From contig DAOSLF010000003.1 of NCBI GenBank assembly GCA_035368605.1, positions 889-64,888 of the forward strand: 64,000 nt of DNA, read 5' to 3'. Positions within the stretch are counted from its first letter, which is position 1. Each line of letters opens with the position of its first letter. The position numbers were made by a program, and so were the translations under genes. The stretch comes from Candidatus Omnitrophota bacterium (GTDB lineage Bacteria; Omnitrophota; Omnitrophia; Omnitrophales; Aquincolibacteriaceae). Of the stretch, positions 14,589-28,059 are shown in pieces. Under the pieces are notes generated by a model. That model ran no database searches and was not told the DNA's origin. It was given only the letters and a program-made list of their open reading frames with translations.

Positions 14589-15974
14589 TCAGGCGGCGGT
14601 GTCGCGGGAGGTAGTCAGGACGAGGGTGTCCTGAAGGGATTTTTTCTTCCTGCGGAAAAGCTCCAGGTCTTCGCGGGAGGCACGCCACGAATAGGACTTC
14701 GTCTGGGACAGGAAGAACATCAGATAATCCCAGTCCTTGTAACCGTAACCATGAAGGACATCCGCAAACTCACGGGCCGCGAGCTCCCAGAGATAAATAA
14801 CATCTGCATTGATGCCTCCGGTCGCGGAATAGACCTTCTGGCGGATGTCCTTCGAAGGGGCCGTCATATAGAGCGAATAATGGCACGGCTTTGAAGGTTC
14901 GTACTTCAGCATCACCTTGACACCGGAGAACGTGTTATAAATCCGCTCGTCCTGACCGATCAGCATCTGGATGCGCCGCGTAAGCTGAAGGGCAAGGAAT
15001 TCCCCCGTCGTCATATCCGGCACGTTGAACTCCGTATCCCACCGGTCCAGGCTTTTCAGGATCATATCCCGGTTCATCGGGAACGACGGATCGTCAAACG
15101 CGCTGGCCATCATCGCCATCGGGATGATCCGCGTGATCTTTTCCTTTTCGCCGTCGACAGACACGTGGAAAAGGTATTCAGGGGTCTCCGGAGGAATCTT
15201 CGCGCCTTTCGGCGTCACCCTGGTCTTCGCATAAACGACGACCTGCCGGTCCTGGAGTACGAGGCTCCGGATATCGAGAATCTCCCAGGACGCCTGCGCA
15301 CGTTCAAGGGGGTATCCCGTCGCGTCCTCGAAATAGAACTCTTTCATCCACTTGACGTCCTCCTGGCCTTTGAAATACCGCGGCTTGAGCTCCTGGCGGG
15401 TCATCGTGTTCAGGTCCGCGAAGAATTTCCGGACCGGCCGGTGCCAGAGGATGGGACGGTTCAGCTGGATTTCGTAAATGAGGCGTTTGCGGTATTCGCT
15501 GCGCGGAATGTCCCAGAAGCGGACCTTCTTCACATCGTCGCTCGCGCCTAGGAACATCATCTCCATCCCCGTCTTTTCGGTGTCCGCGGCCTGGAGGTAA
15601 TAAAAATCGATCTTCTTGTCGGTGGAGAGCATGACGCGCGACATCGAAAAGAGCATGTCCTCAATGCGGTCGATCGCTTTTTCGGTCGGCTGGAAAAGCT
15701 GTTCCATATCGGTCACCTGGCCGGAGAGGATGGCTTCCTTGAAATCCATCGCGAAGAGCTGATCGAGGGGGAGAAAAACGCCGAGCGTCGTTCCGTTGAT
15801 CCTCACGTCACATTGGCGGATGCCGTATTCCTTCTCGGCGATCGACGCGATCTCTTCCTTGACCTTCTCGGCCCGGTAACTGGCGGGCGTGCAACCGGCA
15901 AGGAAGAGGACCGTGAAAAGAAAAAGGGACAGGCTCGCGACCGGAGAGATCGGACCTGTCCCCTGTTTCCTCAT
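14589..15974 (-). CDS. Lipoprotein of unknown function (461 aa) inside the heat-shock operon
   Basis: Lipobox signal peptide ...FLFTVLFLAGC|TPAS. Only 7 nt separate it from the upstream ftsH-like gene. I recognise no conserved domain. Confidence 0.55.
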   Translation of the reverse strand: MRKQGTGPISPVASLSLFLFTVLFLAGCTPASYRAEKVKEEIASIAEKEYGIRQCDVRINGTTLGVFLPLDQLFAMDFKEAILSGQVTDMEQLFQPTEKAIDRIEDMLFSMSRVMLSTDKKIDFYYLQAADTEKTGMEMMFLGASDDVKKVRFWDIPRSEYRKRLIYEIQLNRPILWHRPVRKFFADLNTMTRQELKPRYFKGQEDVKWMKEFYFEDATGYPLERAQASWEILDIRSLVLQDRQVVVYAKTRVTPKGAKIPPETPEYLFHVSVDGEKEKITRIIPMAMMASAFDDPSFPMNRDMILKSLDRWDTEFNVPDMTTGEFLALQLTRRIQMLIGQDERIYNTFSGVKVMLKYEPSKPCHYSLYMTAPSKDIRQKVYSATGGINADVIYLWELAAREFADVLHGYGYKDWDYLMFFLSQTKSYSWRASREDLELFRRKKKSLQDTLVLTTSRDTAA

Positions 15975-15981
15975 GATCCGC

Positions 15982-17640
15982 TTATACCGCCGGCGGGGTT
16001 CCGCCCTGCGTCAGATGGGCGCGGCGGGGATTCGCCTTGCCGTACTCCATGAAGATCGCCTCGATCTCGTCATAATCCAGTTCGTTCTTCTGAAGGAGCT
16101 CATGGGCGAAACGCTCGAAGATGTCCTTTTCCTTGCGGAGGAGCGTATCCACCTCGGCCATGCAGTCCTTCAGGATCTTGTCGACGTCCTGGTTGAGCCG
16201 GGTCTTCATCTCTTCGGAGAGGAGCTGCGGGGCGACCGTGTAGTCTCCCACGAGACCCGACGGCCCCATCCCGTATTTCCAGACCATCGCGTTGGCATAA
16301 TTCGTCGCCTGATAGAAATCACTCCCGGGCCCTCCGCCGACACCGGTCGTGGTCGTTCCGAACTTGATTTTCTCCGCGACATAACTCGCGACGCAGACCT
16401 TGATCTCGGCCAGCATCGACTCGCGGTCGTTCAGGTGCCATTCCTCGATCGGCGTGGGATGCACGACACCGAGGGACATCTTCCGCGGGATAATCGAGGC
16501 CTTGAACACGTCGTCGCGCGGATGCAAAAGGTACGTGACGATCAAATGGCCCGTCTCGTGATACGCCGTCATCTCGCGTTCCTTGACGTTTATGGTCAGC
16601 TTCTGCTTCACGCCGAGCTCGATACGCTCGATCGCTTCGGAGATATCCTTCAGCGTCACGGAATCGCGTTTATTGCGGGTCGCGATCAGGGCCGATTCCT
16701 TGACGATGTTCTCAATGTCGGCCGGCGACTTGTCCACCGCCTTGCGCGCGAGACGCTTGCAGTCAACCGAGGCCTCGTGTTTGACCTTGCCCAGATAGAA
16801 CTTGAAGAGCGCCTCGCGGCCCTCGAGATTCGGTTTCTTGATATAGACCTTCCGGTCGAAACGTCCGGGACGGAGCAGCGCGGGATCGAGTACGTCCTCG
16901 GCCGCGTTCGTGGCCCCGATCACGACGATGTTCTCGGTCTTTTCCCCGAGACCATCCATCGCGACGAGTAGCTGGTTTTGGGTGGTGTTCCCTTCCCCGC
17001 TCCCGAACTGGCTGAAGGTGCGGCGGTGCCCCATCGCGTCAAGCTCATCAATAAACACGATGCAGCCGCCGAACCCGTAGGCCATGCGGGCGGCTTTCTT
17101 GAAGAGTTGGCGAACGCGGCTTGCGCCGACGCCGACGAAAATCTCGTTGAATTCGCTCGCGGCCATCGAAAGAAACGGCAGCCCCGCTTCCGTCGCGATA
17201 GCCTTCGCGAGATATGTTTTGCCGCACCCGGGAGGCCCCATCATCAGGATGCCGCGAAGAATCTTGCCGCCGATCTTCTTGAGGCGCGCATGGTCCTTGA
17301 TAAGCTGAACGACCTCCCAGCACTCCTCTTTGGCCTCGTCGATCCCGATCACGTCCGAAAACTTCACGTTCACGTCCTTGGCCGCGATATTCTTCTTTTT
17401 CTCGAGGTTCCCGAGGTTGCCGCGGAACAGCACCATATAAATATAGGCGAAGACCACCGCATTGATGACCATGATGATCATCTGGAGCGGCAACTGCGCC
17501 AGCGTGATATTGCGGTAGTAGCTTTCAAGCGACGCCATCCCCCAGATCGAGAGGAGGATCAGGATGAGGGAGGCGGCCACGATCGCGATCTTGATCCAGT
17601 GATCCATCCAAAAAAGCTTCCAGCGACGGTATGATTTCAT
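15982..17640 (-). CDS. ftsH: FtsH-family ATP-dependent zinc metalloprotease (short form, minimal periplasmic loop)
   Basis: Two N-terminal TM helices; Walker A GPPGCGKT; Walker [10 protein letters not shown]; SRH ..[22 protein letters not shown]; M41 zinc site HETGH. Start re-called at the ATG ([10 protein letters not shown]) with AAGGAG upstream; the ORF-track Met is a TTG. Confidence 0.75.
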
Positions 17641-17801
17641 GTCAGACAATTCTCCTTTTCATTCTTGGCCTTCAAACTTGGGAAAGCGGCCTGGGAAGGC
17701 GGATAGTTGGGGTATTATATCCGTAAGTATTTCCGTTTTATAGAGGTATTTTGCCCTTTGGCCCCTGTCTTAACCCGAAACTCCGGGAGGAAAGGACAGT
17801 C

Positions 17802-18311
17802 TCACCACCAGTAGTCTTCCGAGGGAGCGGCATTCGTCGCCGCGGTTTCCGGGGAGATCCCCGCAGAGACTCCGCCTGCATCGGTCATCTCGGCTGCGGC
17901 ATCGAATCCGGGGAGAACTTCCGTTCCAGCGGCTGTCTCCTGTTCCCAATAGCCTTCCGCAGGCTGCTCGGGGGAAACCGGCTCTTCCGGCGCGGCAAGG
18001 GCATCCGCGGGAACCGCGGGTTCATCCCACCAGTTAAGTCCGGCCGTTTCCCCGGGCATGGCTTCCCTGGCCGCTGGTTTTTCGGCCTCGGGAGCGAACG
18101 GCGGCGCCGTCAGGAAGGTATCTTTGGGATTGTATTTAACACTATAAAGAAGAGCTCCTTTTTTTCCGTCTTTTTCCTCTTCCATCTTCTGTTTATAGAG
18201 AATGCCGTCCGTTTGCGTGTCCCGGATCGGATCCTCGCTCCTCCGGATCGCGGCAAGATTCGGCACGGCAAGCACGATCACCAAGGTTAAAAACAGACAT
18301 TTTCTGCTCAT
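17802..18311 (-). CDS. Hypothetical secreted acidic, Pro/Ala/Glu-rich low-complexity protein ending in YWW
   Basis: Signal peptide MSRKCLFLTLVIVLAVPNLAA at an internal ATG. The body is low complexity (PEEPVSPEQPAEGYWEQE...). No domain recognised. Confidence 0.4.
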   Translation of the reverse strand: MSRKCLFLTLVIVLAVPNLAAIRRSEDPIRDTQTDGILYKQKMEEEKDGKKGALLYSVKYNPKDTFLTAPPFAPEAEKPAAREAMPGETAGLNWWDEPAVPADALAAPEEPVSPEQPAEGYWEQETAAGTEVLPGFDAAAEMTDAGGVSAGISPETAATNAAPSEDYWW

Positions 18312-18381
18312 GGATGCACCACGTAAAGAGTATCTGAAAAAACCGGTCCTGGCAAATCGCGCGGCGTCCGGAATACGGAGC

Positions 18382-21183
18382 TTAAACATTTATACCCTGC
18401 CCTGTGTTGTATTTCTTGAGGCACCGCCCCGTATAAGACCGCTCGCACGCGAGAAGACCCGGGACATCCCCTGCGTAGAGGACCTCGCCACCCCTGTCGC
18501 CCCCCTCGGGTCCGAGATCGATCACATGGTCCGCGAGACTGATCAGTCCCATATGGTGTTCGATCACAAAGAGCGAATGCCCGCGCGCGAGGAGCTCGTC
18601 AAAAGCCTTCAGCAAATGATGGATATCCCGCTCATGAAGACCGGTGGTCGGTTCGTCGAGGAGATAGAGGGATGGTTCCGGTCCCAATTCGGTAAGCTCC
18701 GACGCGAGCTTCAGGCGTTGCGCCTCCCCTCCCGACAACGTGAGCGTCGGCTGTCCGAGCCGGAGATAGCCGAGGCCGATCCTGCGGAGGATATCCAGTT
18801 TCTCGATGAGGCCCTTGCGATCCGCGAAGAAGACGGCCGCTTCATCCACGGTCATATTGAGGACCTGATCGATGTTCTTTCCCTGATATTCGATCTCGAG
18901 GATCTCGCCCTTGAAACGTTTCCCGCGGCAGGCTTCACAGGGGACAAAGACATCCGCGAGAAAATGCATCTCCACCTTCACGGCACCATCCCCCTTGCAG
19001 GCCGGACAGCGGCCTTTCTCGGAATTGAAGGAAAAGTGACCGGCATCGAATCCCGCGCGCCGGGCCGCCTGGGTCGCGGCAAAGAGTTTGCGGATCTCTT
19101 CGAACGCCTTCGTATAGGTCGCTGGATTGGACCGGGGAGAGCGGCCGATCGGTGACTGGTCGATCACGATCATCTTCGCGATGTGCTCGAATCCCGTGAC
19201 ACGGCCCGCTTCGCCAAGTTCTTCGCGGGAAACAGGTTCGCCGCGGGATTTCAGATAATGATGATAGAGAACATCATAGAGCAGCGTGCTTTTCCCGGAA
19301 CCTGAAACGCCGGTCAGGACCGTCAGCCGTCCGAGCGGGACCGTCACACTGATATTTTTCAGGTTATGCGCCCGCGCGTTTATGATCGTGATCGCCGCTG
19401 TTTTATTCCGGGCCGCGCGGCCGGATTCCGGAACGCGGAACGCCCGTGTCAGTTTTTCCCGTCCCGAAAGATAGCGGGCCGTGTGGGAGTCCTTCACGCC
19501 AGGGAGTCCCCGGACAGGTCCCTGATAAATGAGCCGTCCTCCTCCGGCGCCGCCGTCCGGACCGAGGTCGATCACTTCGTCGGCGGCTTCAATCATCGTC
19601 CGGTCGTGTTCGACCACAACAACCGTATTCCCGAGGTCGCGCAGTTTTTTGAGGAGATTGATCAGCATTTCGTTGTCGCGCTCGTGCAACCCGACGCTCG
19701 GCTCGTCCAGCACATACAGCGTGTCGACAAGCGCCGAACCGAGCGAGCTCGCGAGATGGATCCGCTCCACTTCCCCGCCCGAAAGGGTGCGGGACATCCG
19801 GTCAAGCGTGAGGTAGCCGAGGCCGACCTCTTTCAGAAAGCCGACACGCGCAAGAAGTTCCTCGTGCACGGGGCCGGTCTTCTCCCTTTCCGCAGGCCGG
19901 AATTCGATTCCGCGAAGGAATTCGAGCAGCCGGTCGACCGGCATCGCCTGGATTTCGGCGATCGTCTTGCCGCCGACCCGGTAATTCATCGCCTCCGGTT
20001 TCAGACGGGCGGTCCCGCAGGCCGAACACGGAATGTAGCCGCGGTAGCGGTTCAGGAAAATCCGAACGTGCATCTTGTAGATCTTCTTCGCGAGGTAATC
20101 GAAGAAATCCCGCACGCTGAAGTATTCGTCTCCTTCGCGTCCGTTAAAAATCCATTCCTGGTGCTCTTTTTTGAGTTTCGCCCAGGGCTTTTTGACAGGA
20201 ATGCGTTTCCTCGAACAGAAATCGAGCAGTTGCCCCTGCTCCCAGCGGGTGCTCGCCTTCGTCCACGGCTCGATCGCGCCGCCGCTGATCGAACGCGAAG
20301 GATCGGGAATGACGAGGTCCCGGTCGATCGTGATGACGCGTCCGAACCCCTGGCAGACGGGGCAGGCGCCGAGCGGGCTGTTGAACGAGAAAAGGTTGGA
20401 CGTGGGTTCGGGGAACGTCCGGTCGCAGGAAATACAGCGGAGCTTCTCGGAAAAGGTCAATCGCTCGCCATCGGTCCATGCCTGGACCTCGCCCTGCCCG
20501 TAACGGAACCCGGTCTCGAGCGAATCGATCAGACGTTCCCGTTCATTCGCGGCGGGGATCAGTTCGTCAATCCCCACGAAAAGTTCCTCAGGCGCCGGCT
20601 TGGCCGCGACGACCGCACTTCCCTCGCGCCATTCGCCTTTATGAAAGAACGGGCCAAACCCTTGCCGCTCGAGTTCGGCGATATTCTCCTTCAGGTATTT
20701 TTTCCCGGATCTCCCGACCGCGATCCGGATCACGATCCGGAACTTTCGGCCCGAAGCGTCCGCGATCAGCCGGTCCGCCGTGCCCGCCGGGTCGTGGCTC
20801 TCAACCTCTTTCCCGCAATCCGGACAAGTCAGGCGCCCCGCCCGGGCGAAAAGGACCCGGAGATAGTCGTTGATCTCGGTCTGGGTGCCAACCGTCGAGC
20901 GGGCATTTGTGACGATATTCTTGGCCTGGATCGCGATCGCGGGAGGGATTCCGGTGGCGCTTTCGAGATCCGGCTTCGGCATCCGCTCGAGGAATTGGCG
21001 GGCATACGCGGAAACGGACTCGAGATAGCGGCGCTGTCCCTCCGCATACAGGGTGTCAAAGGCAAGGGATGATTTTCCCGATCCGGAGACACCCGTTACG
21101 ACATAGAACTTCCGGTGCGGAAGCCTGAGGTGGAGGTTCTTGAGATTGTGGGTCCTGACCCCGCGGAGCTCGATGGAATCCAA
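18382..21183 (-). CDS. uvrA: Excinuclease ABC subunit A
   Basis: Two ABC ATPase modules (GVSGSGKSSLAFDT.. and GVSGSGKSTL..), zinc-finger CPxC motifs, and LSGGEAQRLKLA signatures. The ORF-track start at 21354 would overlap the upstream lipoprotein gene by 155 nt and add an S/G/T-rich tail, so the probable real start is a TTG at about 21183 (LDSIELRGVRTHNLKN). Confidence 0.88.
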   Translation of the reverse strand: MDSIELRGVRTHNLKNLHLRLPHRKFYVVTGVSGSGKSSLAFDTLYAEGQRRYLESVSAYARQFLERMPKPDLESATGIPPAIAIQAKNIVTNARSTVGTQTEINDYLRVLFARAGRLTCPDCGKEVESHDPAGTADRLIADASGRKFRIVIRIAVGRSGKKYLKENIAELERQGFGPFFHKGEWREGSAVVAAKPAPEELFVGIDELIPAANERERLIDSLETGFRYGQGEVQAWTDGERLTFSEKLRCISCDRTFPEPTSNLFSFNSPLGACPVCQGFGRVITIDRDLVIPDPSRSISGGAIEPWTKASTRWEQGQLLDFCSRKRIPVKKPWAKLKKEHQEWIFNGREGDEYFSVRDFFDYLAKKIYKMHVRIFLNRYRGYIPCSACGTARLKPEAMNYRVGGKTIAEIQAMPVDRLLEFLRGIEFRPAEREKTGPVHEELLARVGFLKEVGLGYLTLDRMSRTLSGGEVERIHLASSLGSALVDTLYVLDEPSVGLHERDNEMLINLLKKLRDLGNTVVVVEHDRTMIEAADEVIDLGPDGGAGGGRLIYQGPVRGLPGVKDSHTARYLSGREKLTRAFRVPESGRAARNKTAAITIINARAHNLKNISVTVPLGRLTVLTGVSGSGKSTLLYDVLYHHYLKSRGEPVSREELGEAGRVTGFEHIAKMIVIDQSPIGRSPRSNPATYTKAFEEIRKLFAATQAARRAGFDAGHFSFNSEKGRCPACKGDGAVKVEMHFLADVFVPCEACRGKRFKGEILEIEYQGKNIDQVLNMTVDEAAVFFADRKGLIEKLDILRRIGLGYLRLGQPTLTLSGGEAQRLKLASELTELGPEPSLYLLDEPTTGLHERDIHHLLKAFDELLARGHSLFVIEHHMGLISLADHVIDLGPEGGDRGGEVLYAGDVPGLLACERSYTGRCLKKYNTGQGINV

Positions 21184-21199
21184 GGAAATCCCGGACGAA

Positions 21200-21589
21200 C
21201 TACCTGGCGTCGCTCGGGAGCCTGTCGCCGATCCAGTCGATGATCTCGCCGCTGCTGAGCCGCTGCCGGGAGTCGGGCGCGAGAGACACCGAGGTCTGTT
21301 CCCGGTCGACCCGTTTGACGAGGATCGAGATAACGCGTTTGTCAGCGTCGTCAAAGCGGGTGTACTCGGTGTTGCGGACCGTGATGAGGCCTTTTTCCTT
21401 GTCGGTGGACTCGAGTTCCCATCCGGGCTTCGCGTTCAGAGCCATCAGGGTGTTCATGTAGGTCAGGTCATAAGGCTTGTTATAAAGAAGGACCTCGTCG
21501 TGGACCGGGAGGACCTTGTGGACCGACGAACAGCCGGGAAGATAGAGGCACGCGAGAACGGCAACACACATCAGGATTTTTTTCATCAT
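21200..21589 (-). CDS. Small lipoprotein (129 aa)
   Basis: Internal start ATGATG with AAGGAG 7 nt upstream. Signal peptide MMKKILMCVAVLACLYLPGC|SS with lipobox. Confidence 0.55.
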   Translation of the reverse strand: MMKKILMCVAVLACLYLPGCSSVHKVLPVHDEVLLYNKPYDLTYMNTLMALNAKPGWELESTDKEKGLITVRNTEYTRFDDADKRVISILVKRVDREQTSVSLAPDSRQRLSSGEIIDWIGDRLPSDAR

Positions 21590-21655
21590 GGATATCTCCT
21601 TAACCCCGCAGGGTCTCGATTTGAAGCCGGCTTTTTTGTCCGTCACCGGACAGGG

Positions 21656-24600
21656 CTAGAACTTCCCCGTCATCCGCACGAACGGACCGCTGTTATGATA
21701 ATTGTTCGCGTCCCGGAGGTCATCCGTAAAATCGGTAAAATTATAACCGATCCCGATCCGCACGTAATCATAGATTTCACGATCAACCTCGAAAAGCATC
21801 CCGTGCCGTATCGTATCGAGCGCGGAGGATTGCCACAAGAGCCGATATTCGGCCGCGATATCCCATTTCCGGGTCACATGGAAATTAATGCGGCTGACAG
21901 ACAAGAAATTACCGGTATCCGTCTCATCAAGCGTGTTACGGGCCAAAGTGAACAAGTCGCGATCCTGGGTGATCAGCGTTGCCCGTTTCCACGCCAGTTT
22001 CTGTGCGAGACCGAAGAACCGATTCACGTCATAGATCGCGTCCATTGAGATAACATGCGCGATCTCATGGAACATGTTTTCGTTGTAATAAGAATTCACG
22101 TACTGAAAATCATTTCCGATGTCTCTCAAATAGCTATACTTAAAGAGAAAATTCAGGTGGTCAAGACCAATAGGGCGATAGGCAAAAGCCACGGTAAAAT
22201 CCGCAAAATTCCCAAGATTTGTTTGCTTGCTTTCATCCACGAGATCGAAAAGATAGGTGGCGCCATAATCAAATTTGGTCAGAAAAGTCAGCTCGCGATG
22301 AATTTGATATTGAAATGAATTGCGCAAGACCAGCTGATTACCCTTGGGATACGCACCATTGCTTCTCAGTTCCGCATAAGTCCGCGCACGGAGTTTTCTG
22401 CCGTCCGCGTAGGCCAGATAGCCTCCATAAACGTTGGAGCTGTTATTCTGCGCCAGGCTATTTTCAACCAATGTCAGCAGATTCCGGGCCATCGAACTGT
22501 CCAAGTGCCGCCGCTCATACTTCGCGCCGTAATCCCAGTGGTCGTTCAGCGCGCCCTCATAGCCGAGAATATCCGCAAAACCATCCACGCCCTGGTAGGA
22601 GGAGTACTCGCGTTCCGAATAAATTCGCGATTTCTCGGTAAGCGAAAAAGAGCTCCCGATCGCGGTTGAGAGTGTCCTCGAACCAATGCCGCGGTCGATC
22701 GAGCGGAGGTTCGCATAGCTTCGCGCGCCGTTGCCGTGGTTCCTTTCGAAGCCGAAGTAGGTCGAATCCCCCAGCGGACCGAACATCTGCTCGATATAAC
22801 CGAAGACATCCTTGATCAGCTCGCAACGCACACCGCCGCCAAACTGGTAATTGTCCGCCGAGTGAAGAGTCGTTTGCGCTTTCACATACGGCAAGAGGCG
22901 GTCATTGATATGGTAGCCGATCTTGGTCGCGATGCCGTGCTCATAGGGGATTTCGGAATAAAGCGAGGGCGTCAGGTTGGCAGCGTCCTGGACTTGGTCG
23001 ATGTTGCTGCGCTGGTATTCGGCCTGGGCAAGGTATTTGCCGTTATCGTAGGCAAGCTGGGCCGTGTGGGTCTGCAGGTCTTCGTAAGGGGCCATGATAT
23101 TATGCTCGGCAAGAGGCATCAACTGGCCGATCACCTCGCTTGAATCGAAACGGTAGCGGGCCGAGAAATTATCGGTGAACTTGTAACGGCTCGCGAGACC
23201 GTATTTCTTGAAACCTTCCTGGCTCGTCATGTGGCCGTTCGAAAAACTCGGCTCCACGCCCTGGACGTAACCGCTCACTTCGAGGTTCCTCACGGGTTCC
23301 GACTGCGCGCGGATCAGGTAGGCGTCCTCGCGCGGCCGCGTGTTGTCCCCGCGCAGGTTCCCTTCCGTCCCGAAGCTGAGCCCTCCGTCGAAAGAGACCG
23401 AGGAATCCATCTGCTTGTTCGCGGTGGTCGCGTACTCCGCGGTGATCTTGGTGTTGCGGCCGAACTTCATCATCAGGTCAACGCCGCGCATGTCGTAATC
23501 GTTGCCGCCGGTCCGTTTTTCCTCGACCGCCGTTGCACCGAGCCTCACGTGATCGCCGGCCCACACGTAACCGCGCAGACCGCGGTTGCCGATCTCCGGA
23601 AGGTCCGACGAGGAAGGTTCATACTCGTAGTCCACGATCAGGTAAACGGGATTGCCGTCCATGATATCGGCCGAAACGAGCGAATCCGTCGCGGCGACGG
23701 ACGAGAGCGGGCGGGAAAGAAGGATGCGGCCTTCGGCGTAGCTGATCTCGTAATCCGTCCCTTCCGTCATGTCGTGGCTCGTCAGCACCATCCCCGTAAT
23801 CTTGTCGCGGATCTCGACGCGAATCTTTTCGCTACCTTCGATCAGGTTCCGGTTGCGCGTGTAGAAAAGGGAGCCGCCCGTCGCGTAGAACTCGTTATGG
23901 TCGGCCCGTTTGTCCGAATCAGCCCAGAAAAACCGGAGACCGCGCTTCGGGTCCCCGTAGACCGTGCTCGCGACCGAATCGAAACTCCCCTTGAGGCCGG
24001 AGAGCGTCCGGTTATAGGTGGCCAGTTCGGTATCCGTGAATTCCGTCTTGAAGCTCCCCCATTTCAGATAAGACTTGTCCATCTCGACCAGCACATAGAG
24101 CCGCTGGGCCGTGTCCTGCGCCTCGTAGTCGCGTGCCGAGTAGTCGCCGTAGACCGGATAGTATTCGTCAGGGTCGAGGTTCGTGAACAGCGCGGAACGG
24201 CGATCCGAGGTGTCGTAGTGAGCCTTGACGAGGAACTTCCCCTTGAGTTTCGATTTCAGGAAAAAGGCCGCGCGGCCGTCCTCGGTGAACCCGTCGCGGT
24301 AGGCGTCGGAATCCGCGGCTTCCATCGCCCCGTTCGCGAAATTGATGCCGAGCTGCTCCTCGCCAAGGGCGACCATGAAGAACGTGCTGTCCTTGACCTT
24401 GATCTTTTCCTGGTAGGTCGTGCTTTCCCCTTTCGGATCCGCGGCCATGATGTTGAACTCGTGCTCGCCGGGCTCGACGAAGAACTCCTTCTGGAACATG
24501 CCGGTCTCGGGGTCCACTGTCACGGGGAGGTCGTTGATCATGACCTGGTACTCGGGTCTTGTCTTGCCCTGGACCCGGACCGTCGGTTTCGCGATGAGGG

Positions 24601-26419
24601 GGATGCTGCGCTTGCCGTCCTTAAAGAGGTTGAAATCCCCGACCGCCGGAAGCTCGGGCTGGTAGTTCTTCTGGGCCCTGGGATCGAGCTTGTTGTAGAC
24701 CTCGAAGAACTTGAGGGTTGTCCAATCCTCGTGGTGCTTCGCATCGCGAACCTTGAGCTGGTACGAATAGACGCCGGGCTTGATCATGAAACCATTCTCG
24801 GCCTTCCCGTCCCACGTCACCTCCGCGGGCGGCGCACCGATGCCGTAACCGGTCCAGACGGGCACGCCCATTTCGTCGCGGACCTCGATGGCCCATTTCT
24901 TGACGAACCTGGCGTAATTGGTGTCGAGCCTGAAGAGCGCGTCCTTTTCGAGGACCCCGACGCCGAGCTTCAGGAGCTCCGGTTCCATCATAATGTCAAG
25001 GTCCGGCCGGGAGATATCAACCCCCTGCGTGACCATGACCATCAGGTCCTTGCGGAACGCCTCGGGAATGCCGGAGGGCGGGAGCAGGACGGCAAAACTC
25101 GCCTTGCCCATGAGACCGGGCGTGATCTTCACGAGATAGGTCTCTTCGGTGATGAATTTCGTTCCTTCGGGAAGCGTATGCCCGTCGATCTTGACGAGAT
25201 GGCGGCCCGGCGCGACGCCGGGGATGTGATAGCGGCCGTACTCATCGGTGACAACCTTGATGCCCTCTTCCGTATAAAGCGTCACCCACGGCACGCCCTC
25301 TTCACCGCATTGCTGGACGCCGTCCTGGTTAAGATCGTTAAAGACCTTGCCGATGATGGTCCCCTCCTCAAAGATCGGATCGCCCACGACCGTGAACTGC
25401 ACGTGCGCCGTTTCGGAAAGCGTGCCGCCGCTCCCCTCCACCGTAACCTCCAGCGAATATGTCTTCCCGAGCTGGACACCGCTCGTCACGAGCGTGGCAA
25501 ACGTCACGTCATACGAGGCGCCGGGTCCGATCGTCCCGAGCGGGATGAGCAGCGAGCCGTCCTGCCCGGCGACCGACTTCCCGTTCACGCGGATCGAATG
25601 CTCGGCGTAGTCGAACCCGTTCGGAATCTTGACCCGCATGTTCGAGTTCGTGAAGGTGTTGCCGGAACTATTCCGGAAATGCGCATTAATCCCGATCGCG
25701 TCTCCTTTCTTGATGTGACGCTTGGACGCCGCAACCGTAAGCTTTGCCGGATTCACTTCCGCGTTCAGATCGTCATACAGAATATTTCCATATCGGGGAA
25801 CTGCACCGGCGCTGACACCGTTGGCATCCAAAACAAAAACAACTTTGGCCGCATTTTCAGGAACGATCGCAGTTATCGAAAAGAGCGTCCAGACGCCCAC
25901 CGGAGCGGTGGCAGCAGTGATTTTTCCCGTTTCAACGGGAGTTCCGATTTTCACCCCGGAGGCGTCCTCGAACTCGATCTTCATTCTCCCCCCCGTGTCC
26001 GCTGCCATGATGTCCGATTGGGCATAGCCCGAGAAAGTAATGTAATCTCCCGGCTTCACGTTGCTGTAGGTCTGGAACGTGAAGGTGCTTTCATAAAAAG
26101 CCGGCGCGTCAAAATAGGCCTGCAAATAAAGCGCGTAGGAGCCGTTCCTCGGGGCGAGAAAACCGGGCGGCAACCCGGCGGGATTAACCACTCCATCCCA
26201 GCGCCCCATTTTGGCGGTCGTGTTCAAAGGCCTGGTGTTATCTGCCCAGTTATTCTGCGTCCCGTCCCCAAGCGGCTGTTCAAAACTCGGGTTGCCGAGC
26301 ACGTTGGCGAAGGCGGAAGGCGTAAAAGCGAAAAACAGCCACAAACCACAAAACCATACGGCAATACGAAGCCGGGGCGCTTTCTTGGCGGGCATGTGGT
26401 GTGTGGCGCGTGACATCAT
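21656..26419 (-). CDS. Giant outer-membrane protein (1587 aa): signal peptide, CBM-like N-module, Ig/CnaB-like repeats, roughly 700-aa C-terminal beta-barrel
   Basis: Signal peptide ..RLRIAVWFCGLWLFFAFTPSAFA. The module after it begins NVLGNPSFEQPLGDG..NW (CBM4/9-like). A SdrD-B/CnaB-like segment is GKVFNDLNQDGVQQCGEEGVPWVTLYTEEGIKVVTDEYGRYHI. The C-terminal ~700 aa alternate hydrophobic/aromatic residues with frequent Y/F/W and G, ending ..GPFVRMTGKF (C-terminal Phe, an OMP signature). The start ATGATG directly abuts the TAA of the upstream OMP gene (TAAATGATG). Confidence 0.7.
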   Translation of the reverse strand: MMSRATHHMPAKKAPRLRIAVWFCGLWLFFAFTPSAFANVLGNPSFEQPLGDGTQNNWADNTRPLNTTAKMGRWDGVVNPAGLPPGFLAPRNGSYALYLQAYFDAPAFYESTFTFQTYSNVKPGDYITFSGYAQSDIMAADTGGRMKIEFEDASGVKIGTPVETGKITAATAPVGVWTLFSITAIVPENAAKVVFVLDANGVSAGAVPRYGNILYDDLNAEVNPAKLTVAASKRHIKKGDAIGINAHFRNSSGNTFTNSNMRVKIPNGFDYAEHSIRVNGKSVAGQDGSLLIPLGTIGPGASYDVTFATLVTSGVQLGKTYSLEVTVEGSGGTLSETAHVQFTVVGDPIFEEGTIIGKVFNDLNQDGVQQCGEEGVPWVTLYTEEGIKVVTDEYGRYHIPGVAPGRHLVKIDGHTLPEGTKFITEETYLVKITPGLMGKASFAVLLPPSGIPEAFRKDLMVMVTQGVDISRPDLDIMMEPELLKLGVGVLEKDALFRLDTNYARFVKKWAIEVRDEMGVPVWTGYGIGAPPAEVTWDGKAENGFMIKPGVYSYQLKVRDAKHHEDWTTLKFFEVYNKLDPRAQKNYQPELPAVGDFNLFKDGKRSIPLIAKPTVRVQGKTRPEYQVMINDLPVTVDPETGMFQKEFFVEPGEHEFNIMAADPKGESTTYQEKIKVKDSTFFMVALGEEQLGINFANGAMEAADSDAYRDGFTEDGRAAFFLKSKLKGKFLVKAHYDTSDRRSALFTNLDPDEYYPVYGDYSARDYEAQDTAQRLYVLVEMDKSYLKWGSFKTEFTDTELATYNRTLSGLKGSFDSVASTVYGDPKRGLRFFWADSDKRADHNEFYATGGSLFYTRNRNLIEGSEKIRVEIRDKITGMVLTSHDMTEGTDYEISYAEGRILLSRPLSSVAATDSLVSADIMDGNPVYLIVDYEYEPSSSDLPEIGNRGLRGYVWAGDHVRLGATAVEEKRTGGNDYDMRGVDLMMKFGRNTKITAEYATTANKQMDSSVSFDGGLSFGTEGNLRGDNTRPREDAYLIRAQSEPVRNLEVSGYVQGVEPSFSNGHMTSQEGFKKYGLASRYKFTDNFSARYRFDSSEVIGQLMPLAEHNIMAPYEDLQTHTAQLAYDNGKYLAQAEYQRSNIDQVQDAANLTPSLYSEIPYEHGIATKIGYHINDRLLPYVKAQTTLHSADNYQFGGGVRCELIKDVFGYIEQMFGPLGDSTYFGFERNHGNGARSYANLRSIDRGIGSRTLSTAIGSSFSLTEKSRIYSEREYSSYQGVDGFADILGYEGALNDHWDYGAKYERRHLDSSMARNLLTLVENSLAQNNSSNVYGGYLAYADGRKLRARTYAELRSNGAYPKGNQLVLRNSFQYQIHRELTFLTKFDYGATYLFDLVDESKQTNLGNFADFTVAFAYRPIGLDHLNFLFKYSYLRDIGNDFQYVNSYYNENMFHEIAHVISMDAIYDVNRFFGLAQKLAWKRATLITQDRDLFTLARNTLDETDTGNFLSVSRINFHVTRKWDIAAEYRLLWQSSALDTIRHGMLFEVDREIYDYVRIGIGYNFTDFTDDLRDANNYHNSGPFVRMTGKF

Positions 26420-27994
26420 TTAAAACCGCCTGTGCGAGAACTTCATTCCAAAACGGAGGTCGTAACGGATGGCATCGGGAGCTTCCCCGTCCTGCTTGGA
26501 GTGCTGAACTTTACCGATCGCAAGCCATTCCCCGAAGATCGCTATTTTGGAAAGCCACTCGTCTTCTTTCCAGCGATAGGACCTGAACGGCATCCAGCGG
26601 ATTCCGGGAGCAAGGTAATACTGGTTTTGATAATGATAAGAGTATTCGTCATTGCTTGTATGCTCAAAACGGAGGTAAGGCATCAGGACCAATTCATCGT
26701 TGATCGGGTTATGCGGGAGCGGGATAGCGGGCAGCTTGATCCCCATGATCACGGAGGAGTTCAGAATCCAGGCGTTGAAATGACGCATCTCGCTAAAATC
26801 GGTTTTATGCCACCGGTAGTCGCCGAAATATTCGCCCCACACATATTGACGGAGATAATCGGCAAAACGTTCGGGCTTTCCTTCGTCCAGAGGCGGCAAC
26901 TCCGTGCCCCATTCATAGAAAATCTGAACCCCGGCAACCAGATCGTAGTCTTTCGCGTTCTGGATCTCGTCCTTGATGTTGTAACGGTTGCCGTATTTGA
27001 TATAGAACTTGTAATTCCGGACCCATTCAAGGAGCGGGATGTCCCAGCCGAACGGGCGGAAGTTGTAAAGCCAGGGATTGCGCGCGAAGGGACGCCATTC
27101 GAATCCGGCGAAGATATCGAAGTGGCTCTTGTAATCCGCCCCGACCGCTTCGATCGTTGTCGTCTCCTCGAAGAAGGGATCGATGGTGCTGAGCGGGGCG
27201 CGGATGCCTTTAAGGACGATGCGGTTCGTCCAGTAGCCGACCTGGCTGTTGAAGTTCCTGTTCTCGAGGTTGGTCATGCGGTAGGTTGTTTCGCCGAAGG
27301 ACTGCCACAGCACCGGTTCGCCGGCCGGCTCGCCCTGGAAGGGGCCCCACATCTTTTCCCCGAGATCGAGCTGGTCCGCGAATTTAAGAACGAGCTCTTC
27401 TTCCTTCTGGTACTGGGCCTTCGTCTTCACGGGCTCCGGTTTTTCAGGCGCGACAAACACCGGCACGGCCTGGACGCTCTTTGCGAAATTCCCGCCCTGG
27501 GATTCGATCCTCGATTTGACGCGGGTCACTTCCGCGGTCGCCTGGGCGGCCGTCGGGAAGGCCTTGTCCCCGACCCAGAAAAGATCGGACGTTCCCCCGC
27601 CCGCGAGCGGGAGGGGAAGTTTGCGGATCTCTACGCCTTCGAAATTCGCGACCTGCAGGTTCTTCTTGATGTATTCGTCGATCGCCTTGATGTCTTTCAG
27701 GCCGGGAAGGAAACGCGATCGGAGCGCGCCGCCCCCGAAATCTGTCACGATGGAATATTCGGCGTTCTGCGGCCGCGAGCGGGTCTTGATCACGGGAAAG
27801 CCGCGGACCCCGGAGACCTTCAGGTCGAGTTTCTGGCCGGACGGGGCGTAGAAATGCTCGGCGTAGAGATTTCTCCCGGGAGTTTCGGCCGGAGCGGCTT
27901 CAGGCTCGGTCGTCAGGATGCCCGCAAACGCAGGGGAGGAACAGAAAAGAACCGCGCTTGCCAAAACAGGGGGTATGAAATTTTTAAGTATCAT
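26420..27994 (-). CDS. Outer-membrane protein of unknown function (524 aa), cotranscribed with the giant outer-membrane protein
   Basis: Signal peptide MILKNFIPPVLASAVLFCSSPAFA. The body is aromatic-rich and beta-strand-like and ends ..RFGMKFSHRRF (C-terminal Phe). An AT-rich promoter-like region lies at 27995..28059. Confidence 0.55.
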   Translation of the reverse strand: MILKNFIPPVLASAVLFCSSPAFAGILTTEPEAAPAETPGRNLYAEHFYAPSGQKLDLKVSGVRGFPVIKTRSRPQNAEYSIVTDFGGGALRSRFLPGLKDIKAIDEYIKKNLQVANFEGVEIRKLPLPLAGGGTSDLFWVGDKAFPTAAQATAEVTRVKSRIESQGGNFAKSVQAVPVFVAPEKPEPVKTKAQYQKEEELVLKFADQLDLGEKMWGPFQGEPAGEPVLWQSFGETTYRMTNLENRNFNSQVGYWTNRIVLKGIRAPLSTIDPFFEETTTIEAVGADYKSHFDIFAGFEWRPFARNPWLYNFRPFGWDIPLLEWVRNYKFYIKYGNRYNIKDEIQNAKDYDLVAGVQIFYEWGTELPPLDEGKPERFADYLRQYVWGEYFGDYRWHKTDFSEMRHFNAWILNSSVIMGIKLPAIPLPHNPINDELVLMPYLRFEHTSNDEYSYHYQNQYYLAPGIRWMPFRSYRWKEDEWLSKIAIFGEWLAIGKVQHSKQDGEAPDAIRYDLRFGMKFSHRRF

Positions 27995-28059
27995 TAAAAA
28001 TTTTTAGTTTTTGGCTTTCGGCTTTTGCAAAACTTTAATGAACAAGGTCCCGCCAAAAC

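Follow-up and report, generated by a model that had tools for sequence, protein, structure and literature searches.

The stretch of DNA analysed here (the window) comprises 64,000 nucleotides (nt) from a Candidatus Omnitrophota bacterium of the Aquincolibacteriaceae (assembly GCA_035368605.1, contig DAOSLF010000003.1, forward-strand positions 889–64,888). All coordinates are window positions, and the loci of relatives are numbered L001, L027 and so on. Open reading frame (ORF) calling and translation revealed three co-oriented genes on the minus strand, here termed A, B and C, with dapB on one side and uvrA on the other. Gene A specifies an outer-membrane protein of no known family, gene B a giant protein in which a signal peptide and five beta-sandwich-type domains precede a predicted outer-membrane barrel of about 40 strands, and gene C a small lipoprotein (Table 1). 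A first-pass annotation of the region had proposed that B fuses a beta-sandwich array, including a CnaB-type domain, to a very large C-terminal outer-membrane barrel, and this is borne out by AlphaFold2 (AF2) modelling, Foldseek and hidden Markov model (HMM) searches. The barrel of B, protein A and protein C are covered by no Pfam, NCBIfam or PDB family.

Table 1. Features of genes A, B and C and of the sequence upstream of A, in window coordinates
Feature	Position	Strand	Basis or remark
Gene C, lipoprotein, 129 amino acids (aa)	21200..21589	-	ATG preceded by an AAGGAG ribosome-binding site
Gene B, 1587 aa	21656..26419	-	ORF; signal peptide, five beta-sandwich-type domains and predicted barrel of about 40 strands
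B signal peptide, residues 1–38, ...PSAFA|N	26306..26419	-	Read from the translation
B distal N-terminal domain, residues 39–224	25748..26305	-	33% mean orthologue identity, the least conserved
B DUF11-like domain, residues 225–343	25391..25747	-	38% mean orthologue identity
B SdrD_B (CnaB-type) domain, residues 344–447	25079..25390	-	72% mean orthologue identity, the most conserved
B linker and FlgD_ig-like sandwich, residues 448–590	24650..25078	-	54% mean orthologue identity
B barrel-proximal immunoglobulin (Ig)-like domain, residues 591–675	24395..24649	-	55% mean orthologue identity
B C-terminal outer-membrane barrel, residues 682–1587, about 905 aa, predicted about 40 strands	21659..24376	-	AF2, covariation, strand parity
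B barrel insert, 77 aa, residues 846–922, on hairpin 8/9, candidate plug	23654..23884	-	Small beta domain in the AF2 model
A/B junction	26417..26425	-	TAA stop of A, then ATGATG of B without a gap
Gene A, outer-membrane protein without known family, 524 aa	26420..27994	-	ORF, translation
A signal peptide, residues 1–24, ...SPAFA|G	27923..27994	-	Read from the translation; predicted helix 3–17
A N-terminal alpha/beta domain, residues about 40–180	27455..27877	-	AF2: beta4-alpha-beta4-alpha, pLDDT about 90; no HMM match
A C-terminal predicted 12-strand barrel, residues 229–524	26423..27310	-	Twelve long strands in the AF2 model
dapB–A spacer, possible promoter region	27995..28059	-	65 nt, 66% A+T

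The C-terminal region of B was modelled with AF2 from residue 590 to residue 1587 (998 residues) on a 61-sequence alignment. The model, with a mean predicted local distance difference test (pLDDT) score of 74 and a predicted template modelling (pTM) score of 0.70, shows the Ig-like sandwich followed by 42 long antiparallel strands. When it was compared with the PDB using Foldseek, the significant full-length matches were all outer-membrane barrels (E = 1e-7 to 1e-4), including SlpA (30 strands), MtrB, BtuB, LptD, SprA (36 strands) and FimD, at template modelling (TM) scores of 0.09–0.30. Judged from the model, the fold class is clear but no known topology is matched. The earlier description of this region as barrel-like is therefore sustained by an all-beta meander whose structural matches are exclusively outer-membrane barrels; its length, put at about 700 residues before the AF2 strands were counted, had been underestimated. 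The sub-threshold HMM matches of the region are likewise all to barrel families (DUF2490, Porin_4, OMP_b-brl). B ends in ...GKF, the terminal phenylalanine having been read correctly in the first pass, and the C-terminal residue is F, Y or W in 254 of 272 family members (93%). Alternation of hydrophobicity along the strands is weak, with 7 of the 42 above the 95% background level.

Covariation was studied in 300 non-redundant barrels (effective number of sequences, Neff, about 256) using reduced-alphabet direct coupling analysis and a targeted full-alphabet run. Ladders between adjacent strands scored 0.45 on average, against 0.16 ± 0.06 for non-adjacent strands (99th percentile 0.32), and the pattern supports 41 consecutive hairpins. 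Among non-adjacent pairs the highest score, 0.59 (z = 6.2), linked strands 7 and 10, so that strands 8 and 9 with the 77-aa insert form an excursion from the wall; 42 minus 2 leaves 40 wall strands. An antiparallel ladder between the first and the last strand, the closing contact that would be expected of a single barrel, ranked second among 26,448 N-to-C windows in the targeted run (z = 5.0). If 40 strands are counted, the 11 connections that are at least 12 aa long are all located at loop positions, and the median turn is 3 aa long (p = 4e-5). An origin as two tandem barrels by internal duplication was also considered, and was rejected because hhalign gave a probability of only 11% that the two halves are homologous. 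The model, the covariation and the parity of the connections point to one closed up-and-down barrel of about 40 strands. Strand parity further puts the insert at the lumenal/periplasmic end of hairpin 8/9, a position that suits a plug; its mean identity among orthologues is 67%, that of the barrel (676–1587 as scored) 52%.

One covariation signal stands apart. The top long-range ladder of the targeted run (z = 5.5) pairs model columns 146–152 with 824–830, corresponding approximately to B 815–825 and B 1500–1510, and so links the turn between strands 6 and 7 to that between strands 38 and 39. The barrel model gives no explanation for this ladder, which may reflect noise or else a contact made across the lumen or with the plug.

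Public gene callers place the start of B at Met9, giving a protein of 1579 aa. There are 236 homologues of B, and the full-length Omnitrophota orthologues are 36–100% identical to it. Within the N-terminal array the domain families were found at very different strengths. The SdrD_B domain (PF17210), in which a DxNxDG calcium-binding-like loop can be seen, scores 29.7 bits, exactly its Pfam cut-off of 29.7, and is the only domain to reach one. DUF11 (15.2 bits against a cut-off of 24.6, E = 0.028) and FlgD_ig (21.1 bits against 27, E = 3e-4) fall below theirs, although the best orthologue matches DUF11 at E = 5.7e-6 and clear DUF11 matches sit at the homologous position in relatives. A Pfam scan of 31 B orthologues (matches at E ≤ 0.01) found SdrD_B in every one, Glucodextran_B in 19, FlgD_ig in 18, DUF11 and CarboxypepD_reg in 12 each, weak CHU_C matches in 10 and the barrel family DUF2490 in eight. 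Searched against solved structures, the profile of the B family matched only SdrD (E = 2.8e-7). The domain composition proposed in the first pass thus holds for SdrD_B, with DUF11 left below threshold, and does not hold for the carbohydrate-binding module (CBM) then placed at the N-terminus. CBM_4_9 was undetected in B and present in one of the 31 orthologues (E = 1.5e-4), and a profile of the distal domain matched a cellulosomal scaffoldin at E = 0.023 and the CBM4 structure 1gui at E = 0.082. Single-sequence, per-orthologue and profile searches having all failed or been marginal, the label is unproven and was dropped.

The Ig-like domain nearest the barrel was modelled as a beta-sandwich at model residues 24–86 (pLDDT 75–90) and ends 6 residues ahead of barrel strand 1; Glucodextran_B-like matches occupy the equivalent position in relatives. 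Pfam detected no wall-binding domain in window B or its orthologues, the OmpA domain (PF00691) being absent from all of them.

Protein A, described in the first pass as an aromatic-rich outer-membrane protein of unknown family, answers to that description: F, W and Y make up 15.1% of its residues overall and 19.6% in its barrel half, it ends in RRF, and it has no Pfam, NCBIfam or PDB sequence match, either as a single sequence or as a 54-member profile. The Pfam Autotransporter model (PF03797) was unmatched in the 54 members of the family. In the AF2 model (pLDDT 80.7) the alpha/beta domain is compact, its core spanning about residues 60–175, and a helix at residues 192–209 precedes the barrel. 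Foldseek matched the model only to outer-membrane barrels of 12–14 strands, the best being the autotransporter beta-domains of EspP, Hbp and BrkA, with a COG4313 channel and NanC also found (E = 2.5e-6 to about 2e-4; target-normalised TM-scores about 0.35–0.42). Nearly all named proteins among the 240 homologues of A are labelled Omnitrophota. Of the four longest connections in the model, those of 27, 22 and 17 aa are at the expected periplasmic turns and the one of 20 aa is at a loop position.

Protein C possesses the lipobox LPG-C20, in keeping with the small lipoprotein annotated after B. The cysteine is invariant in 25 of 25 aligned orthologues, and position -1 is usually G but A in some of them. 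Neither the single sequence nor a profile of C matched anything in Pfam, NCBIfam or the PDB.

The three genes are closely spaced. A and B, already described as translationally coupled in the first pass (Table 1), are separated by at most 25 nt or overlap in most orthologues, with gaps of 45–346 nt in four loci. The ATG of C starts 63 nt past B, and in the public gene calls uvrA starts 17 nt beyond the stop of C. Upstream of A lie dapB, dapA, dapF, a lysA-like decarboxylase gene and a saccharopine-dehydrogenase-like gene; downstream of C lie uvrA, an FtsH-like gene and dnaJ. An AT-rich promoter had been suggested ahead of A. The base composition of the dapB–A spacer agrees with this, but a promoter scan found no sigma-70-like site inside it, the sole nearby match being in the dapB ORF itself, some 30 nt ahead of that gene's stop codon. 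Scans of the window for tRNA genes and Rfam families found none.

The comparison of gene neighbourhoods that had been recommended showed A-B(-C) to be syntenic across Omnitrophota. Almost every named homologue of the three proteins carries the label Candidatus Omnitrophica or Omnitrophota, and all are called hypothetical or uncharacterized. The order dapB-A-B-C-uvrA is retained in relatives at 62% and 44% identity, and A-B(-C) synteny persists down to 41–44%. A census covered 36 orthologous loci from species-representative genomes and metagenome contigs. Gene A was present at all 32 loci having the upstream region on the contig, and C at 27 of the 36; at four loci C is truly absent and uvrA directly follows B. 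Upstream, dapB was found at 28 of the 36 loci, and downstream uvrA at 30. From these counts the A-B-C cluster is a vertically inherited core feature of Omnitrophota and not a mobile island.

The barrel itself extends well beyond this phylum. A search of the 914-aa barrel against 1.84 billion cluster representatives returned 2,721 at E ≤ 1e-3 and 852 at E ≤ 1e-30, the matches listed ranging in length from about 450 aa (fragments) to 7,612 aa. Among 327 full-length matches the barrel occupies the extreme C-terminus in 286, and the extension ahead of it measures 2 to 6,722 aa (median 671). Distant relatives in species-representative genomes (28–33% identical to the 998-residue query across at least about 900 positions) occur in the Gammaproteobacteria (Leucothrix arctica, Lysobacter, Arenimonas, Granulosicoccaceae, Halieaceae) and in Nitrospirae, Thermodesulfovibrionia, Planctomycetes and Brocadiia, and Campylobacterales. 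Omnitrophota also carry second barrel copies. In assembly JACQQO01 an A-B orthologue (L027) and a split barrel paralogue (L046) occur together, so that the family has diversified within this phylum. The HMMs of A and of C match nothing beside the distant barrel relatives; on this evidence A and C would be Omnitrophota-specific additions.

In the full-length profile the DUF11-like and SdrD_B module (B 224–450), the Ig-like domain (from about B603) and the barrel are conserved throughout the family. Nearly every distant relative examined has the module together with the barrel, on the same chain or in the product of an adjacent gene; where there are two genes they often overlap by 4 nt, and among the split cases sampled most of the barrel proteins and of their partners bear signal peptides of their own. 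This repeated fusion and fission argues that array and barrel work together physically. In the distant relatives the equivalent of B 448–590 is the site of gene fission or of OmpA domains. The extensions of 3,000–6,700 aa consist of adhesin-type repeats (DUF11, DUF7507, Calx-beta).

Several relatives (L049, L074, L077, L078, L062, L065 and protein P0330) have OmpA domains (PF00691) above the curated cut-off in the interval from SdrD_B module to barrel, and the array of L065 also holds five Calx-beta domains. In a local census, 54 of 351 family proteins, chains of 3,000–4,500 aa among them, had one or two such domains at a distance of 250–450 aa ahead of the barrel. OmpA domains bind peptidoglycan in the periplasm, and the barrel-adjacent stretch should therefore be periplasmic in those relatives.

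Some split loci have less usual arrangements. At L073 (3166–8737, a Lysobacter sp.) a barrel-only gene is followed by three ORFs of about 610–650 aa, two of which end in DUF11 and one of which matches gliding_AgmC_N, the N-terminal domain of the gliding-motility protein AgmC (194 bits against a cut-off of 275); the single barrel may have several partners here. In two Omnitrophota paralogues, L058 (8896–10833) and L046 (3548–5383), the barrel gene comes first, and the partner has its own signal peptide and, at its C-terminus, an SdrD_B region; that of L058 also gave a weak match to YVTN beta-propeller repeats (E = 4e-4, below the cut-off).

Several known systems resemble parts of this one. Intimin and other type Ve proteins combine a periplasmic wall-binding domain, a barrel, an Ig-like array and a lectin-like tip on one polypeptide, the chain threading its own barrel. 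B and its relatives share the combination of barrel and Ig-like array on one chain, and some relatives the wall-binding domain as well, but the order in B is mirrored, with the array N-terminal and the barrel C-terminal; the barrel has about 40 predicted strands instead of 12, no sequence similarity exists, and the wall-binding domain is of the OmpA type, not LysM, and occurs in some relatives only, not in window B. With type Va autotransporters B shares the layout of signal peptide, variable N-terminal passenger and conserved C-terminal barrel with an aromatic end, and A, with its small N-terminal domain, helix and predicted 12-strand barrel, resembles a miniature version of it. The differences are the strand number of B, the lack of a Pfam Autotransporter match in A or B, and a passenger of beta-sandwiches instead of a beta-helix. 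A pore of the size of B could let folded domains pass.

The large barrels of ushers (FimD, PapC) are closed by a plug domain inside them and that of LptD by the lipoprotein LptE; both kinds have N-terminal periplasmic domains. Ushers have 24 strands and LptD 26, compared with about 40 in B; there is no HMM match, chaperone and pilin genes are lacking at the locus, the TM-score to LptD is 0.12–0.17, and the likeness of the B insert to the usher plug is one of analogy only. The best Foldseek match of B is SlpA of Deinococcus radiodurans (E = 1.4e-7, TM-score 0.20–0.23), a 30-strand protein tethering the outer membrane to the wall through its N-terminal region; the OmpA domains in relatives of B are comparable to that region. 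SlpA is a trimeric, abundant structural protein, whereas B has no SLH domain and, within modelled residues 590–1587, no long helix before the barrel.

SprA, of the type IX secretion system (T9SS), is like B a giant single-chain barrel that needs gating, and each has a smaller barrel protein and one more accessory protein as companions, which for SprA are PorV and the plug protein. The signal domain at the C-terminus of T9SS cargo is Ig-like, and CHU_C was among the weak matches of the B orthologues. B, however, matches no SprA HMM, has a TM-score to SprA of 0.09–0.17, is linked to no T9SS genes and has its barrel fused to its own array; the T9SS is described from the Bacteroidota/FCB lineage, outside which Omnitrophota lie.

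With 36 strands, SprA is the largest barrel solved (10.64898/2026.03.07.710327). Solan et al. (PNAS 2021, PMC8346858) used sequences and contact maps to predict a barrel superfamily whose 'family 002' has 40 strands and 'family 003' has 38. These, like B, are single-chain barrels predicted with contact-map support to exceed the strand number of SprA, the count of about 40 agrees, and the B barrel family may be among them. The available passages of that paper make no mention of DUF11/SdrD_B linkage, OmpA insertions, a plug-like insert or the Omnitrophota A-B-C operon. No description of the A-B-C system emerged from the literature searched, which covered the envelopes of Omnitrophota, DUF11/SdrD_B in combination with barrels, and 40-stranded barrels; papers on Omnitrophota discuss giant ORFs and Tad pili, and the passages retrieved from them, PMC10066038 among them, do not mention the operon.

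We tentatively read A, B and C as subunits of a vertically inherited, Omnitrophota-specific outer-membrane module that is centred on B and displays its array at the cell surface, an interpretation we regard as possible, though somewhat short of probable. The barrel of B is probably plugged, and the module is phylum-wide in Omnitrophota, within a much wider uncharacterised family. The barrel, as a single up-and-down barrel of about 40 strands, would be membrane anchor and gated conduit at once; from its aromatic C-terminal residue we infer insertion by the normal barrel-assembly route, and the insert on the inward hairpin would probably act as the plug. The barrel-adjacent segment (the Ig-like domain, with OmpA wall-binding domains in relatives) would stay in the periplasm for retention and as a wall anchor, close to the boundary that follows SdrD_B the chain would pass through the pore, and the distal array would be displayed. 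Such a logic would be akin to that of autotransporters, of a mirror-image intimin and of LapA-LapE, with a pore wide enough for folded domains; A and C would be accessory subunits assisting pore assembly, gating or stabilisation. Arrays of thousands of residues with adhesin-type repeats can hardly be periplasmic, a pore so wide would be needless for anchoring alone, and the distal tip evolves fastest; all three favour surface display.

Several observations tell against this interpretation. By default the N-terminus of an even-stranded barrel is periplasmic, and in relatives the OmpA domains show that the part of the chain beside the barrel, at least, is too; surface display thus requires a threading step. 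The Omnitrophota array is short (about 635 aa), well conserved and encoded among housekeeping genes, which fits a periplasmic structural role equally. C is missing in some Omnitrophota lineages, and the longer connections of A lie on the predicted periplasmic side, which is unusual and largely the opposite of B. The closing ladder is only the second-best N-to-C signal, and strand count and closure rest on the DSSP string, covariation at the Neff given above and parity, in a model of modest mean pLDDT whose first strands, 976–986 segment before the last strand and last three residues are of low confidence.

Alternatively, no part of the B array would leave the periplasm; it would form a strut or funnel there and perhaps bind the wall through its distal domain, while the barrel serves as a plugged channel for other cargo or large solutes, or mainly as a tether between outer membrane and wall; by analogy with LptD-LptE or the usher plug, C and the insert might be the plugs. 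The Ig-like domain stopping just short of strand 1, with a periplasmic start by parity, agrees with this arrangement, as do the wall-binding domains between SdrD_B and barrel in relatives, the high conservation of SdrD_B, the stable gene position between the dap genes and uvrA, the adjacent lipoprotein gene and a best structural match, SlpA, that is itself such a tether. Adhesin-repeat extensions of 3,000–6,700 aa in relatives are nevertheless hard to fit in the periplasm, no gene for a cargo or an inner-membrane partner is linked in the neighbourhoods of the window and two relatives, and B has no detected wall-binding domain and a distal domain that is its least conserved; we consider a wholly periplasmic array rather doubtful. 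A related proposal from the first pass, that A and B anchor an S-layer or sheath on the outer membrane, gains something from the S-layer-associated Deinococcus SlpA at the top of the Foldseek matches and from the description of some Omnitrophota as 'coated' cocci in the passages available of PMC10066038. Yet the TM-scores to SlpA are low, no SLH or other wall- or S-layer-related Pfam match was found in A, B, C or the ten flanking ORFs scanned, and across the many phyla that have this barrel family the N-terminal arrays differ greatly, making such an anchor improbable.

It is more improbable still that B is a known machine diverged beyond the reach of HMMs, be it LptD, an usher, SprA or a classical autotransporter. 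Foldseek does list LptD, FimD/PapC and SprA (E = 4e-6 to 1e-4), the barrel has a plug-like insert and a lipoprotein gene is adjacent, but the Pfam and NCBIfam models of LptD, Usher, SprA and Autotransporter were unmatched in the 31 orthologues even at E < 0.1, the TM-scores stay between 0.09 and 0.30, and about 40 strands compare with 26, 24, 36 and 12, respectively. The family is also found in Proteobacteria, which are expected to have a bona fide LptD of their own, and chaperone or T9SS genes are not linked. The first-pass suggestion of a giant specific porin or usher finds no support in the same kind of HMM and TM-score results. That the large barrel is an artefact of prediction, the region being two or more barrels or a soluble beta-rich domain, appears equally hard to credit. 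The modest pLDDT with its low-confidence stretches, the weak alternation of hydrophobicity and a first whole-alignment covariation run that left closure unresolved (score 0.24) would allow it; against it stand the pTM over 998 residues, the rank of the closing ladder, the lack of internal duplication, the canonical parity of loops and turns, the signal peptide, the aromatic C-terminus throughout most of the family and sub-threshold matches confined to barrel families.

The display interpretation can be carried further, to a widespread, self-contained 'giant-barrel autotransporter' class for display or secretion that exports and holds folded beta-sandwich arrays of up to about 6,700 aa and, in Omnitrophota, forms a core surface organelle of these host-dependent nanobacteria; we consider this broader claim rather unlikely. 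If it held, no known barrel would be larger than this plugged single chain of about 40 strands, whose arrays would be either fused to it or encoded in an adjacent gene; in some versions OmpA domains would fasten it to the cell wall, and the phylum-wide Omnitrophota version would have A and C as two extra subunits of unknown fold family.

A widespread barrel of about 40 predicted strands linked to surface-type arrays is without experimental description to date. Its family spans Omnitrophota, Proteobacteria, Nitrospirota, Planctomycetota and other phyla, and has thousands of members but no Pfam or NCBIfam model, solved structure or studied member. A 40-strand barrel would exceed the 36 strands of SprA, and a pore of such width must be gated. 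Linkage of the barrel to DUF11/SdrD_B arrays, and sometimes to wall-binding domains, suggests a new mode of display or anchoring for very large surface proteins. Omnitrophota are uncultured, very small and probably host-dependent, and conserved candidates for the machinery of their cell surface are few, the A-B-C triad being one of them; culturable relatives with the barrel (Leucothrix arctica, Lysobacter) put experiments within reach.

Some features of the flanking genes may be recorded. Mechanical ORF calling extends uvrA over 18382–21354 on the minus strand (990 aa, TTG start), overlapping C, whereas the public calls give 933 aa; the true start is probably a TTG near 21183, giving MDSIELRGV.... 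In a distant member of the Omnitrophota (L001, 13061–14824) a 587-aa ORF without a Pfam match and an mgtE gene on the opposite strand lie between C and uvrA. The FtsH-like protein (15982–17649, minus strand) has AAA and Peptidase_M41 domains but only 555 aa; its AAA domain starts at residue 134, and the usual N-terminal membrane/periplasmic region appears shortened. Its gene is flanked by ORFs of 461 aa (14589–15974) and 195 aa (17802–18389), both on the minus strand and without a Pfam match, and the relative at 62% identity has ORFs of 466 and 165 aa, again without a Pfam match, at the same positions.

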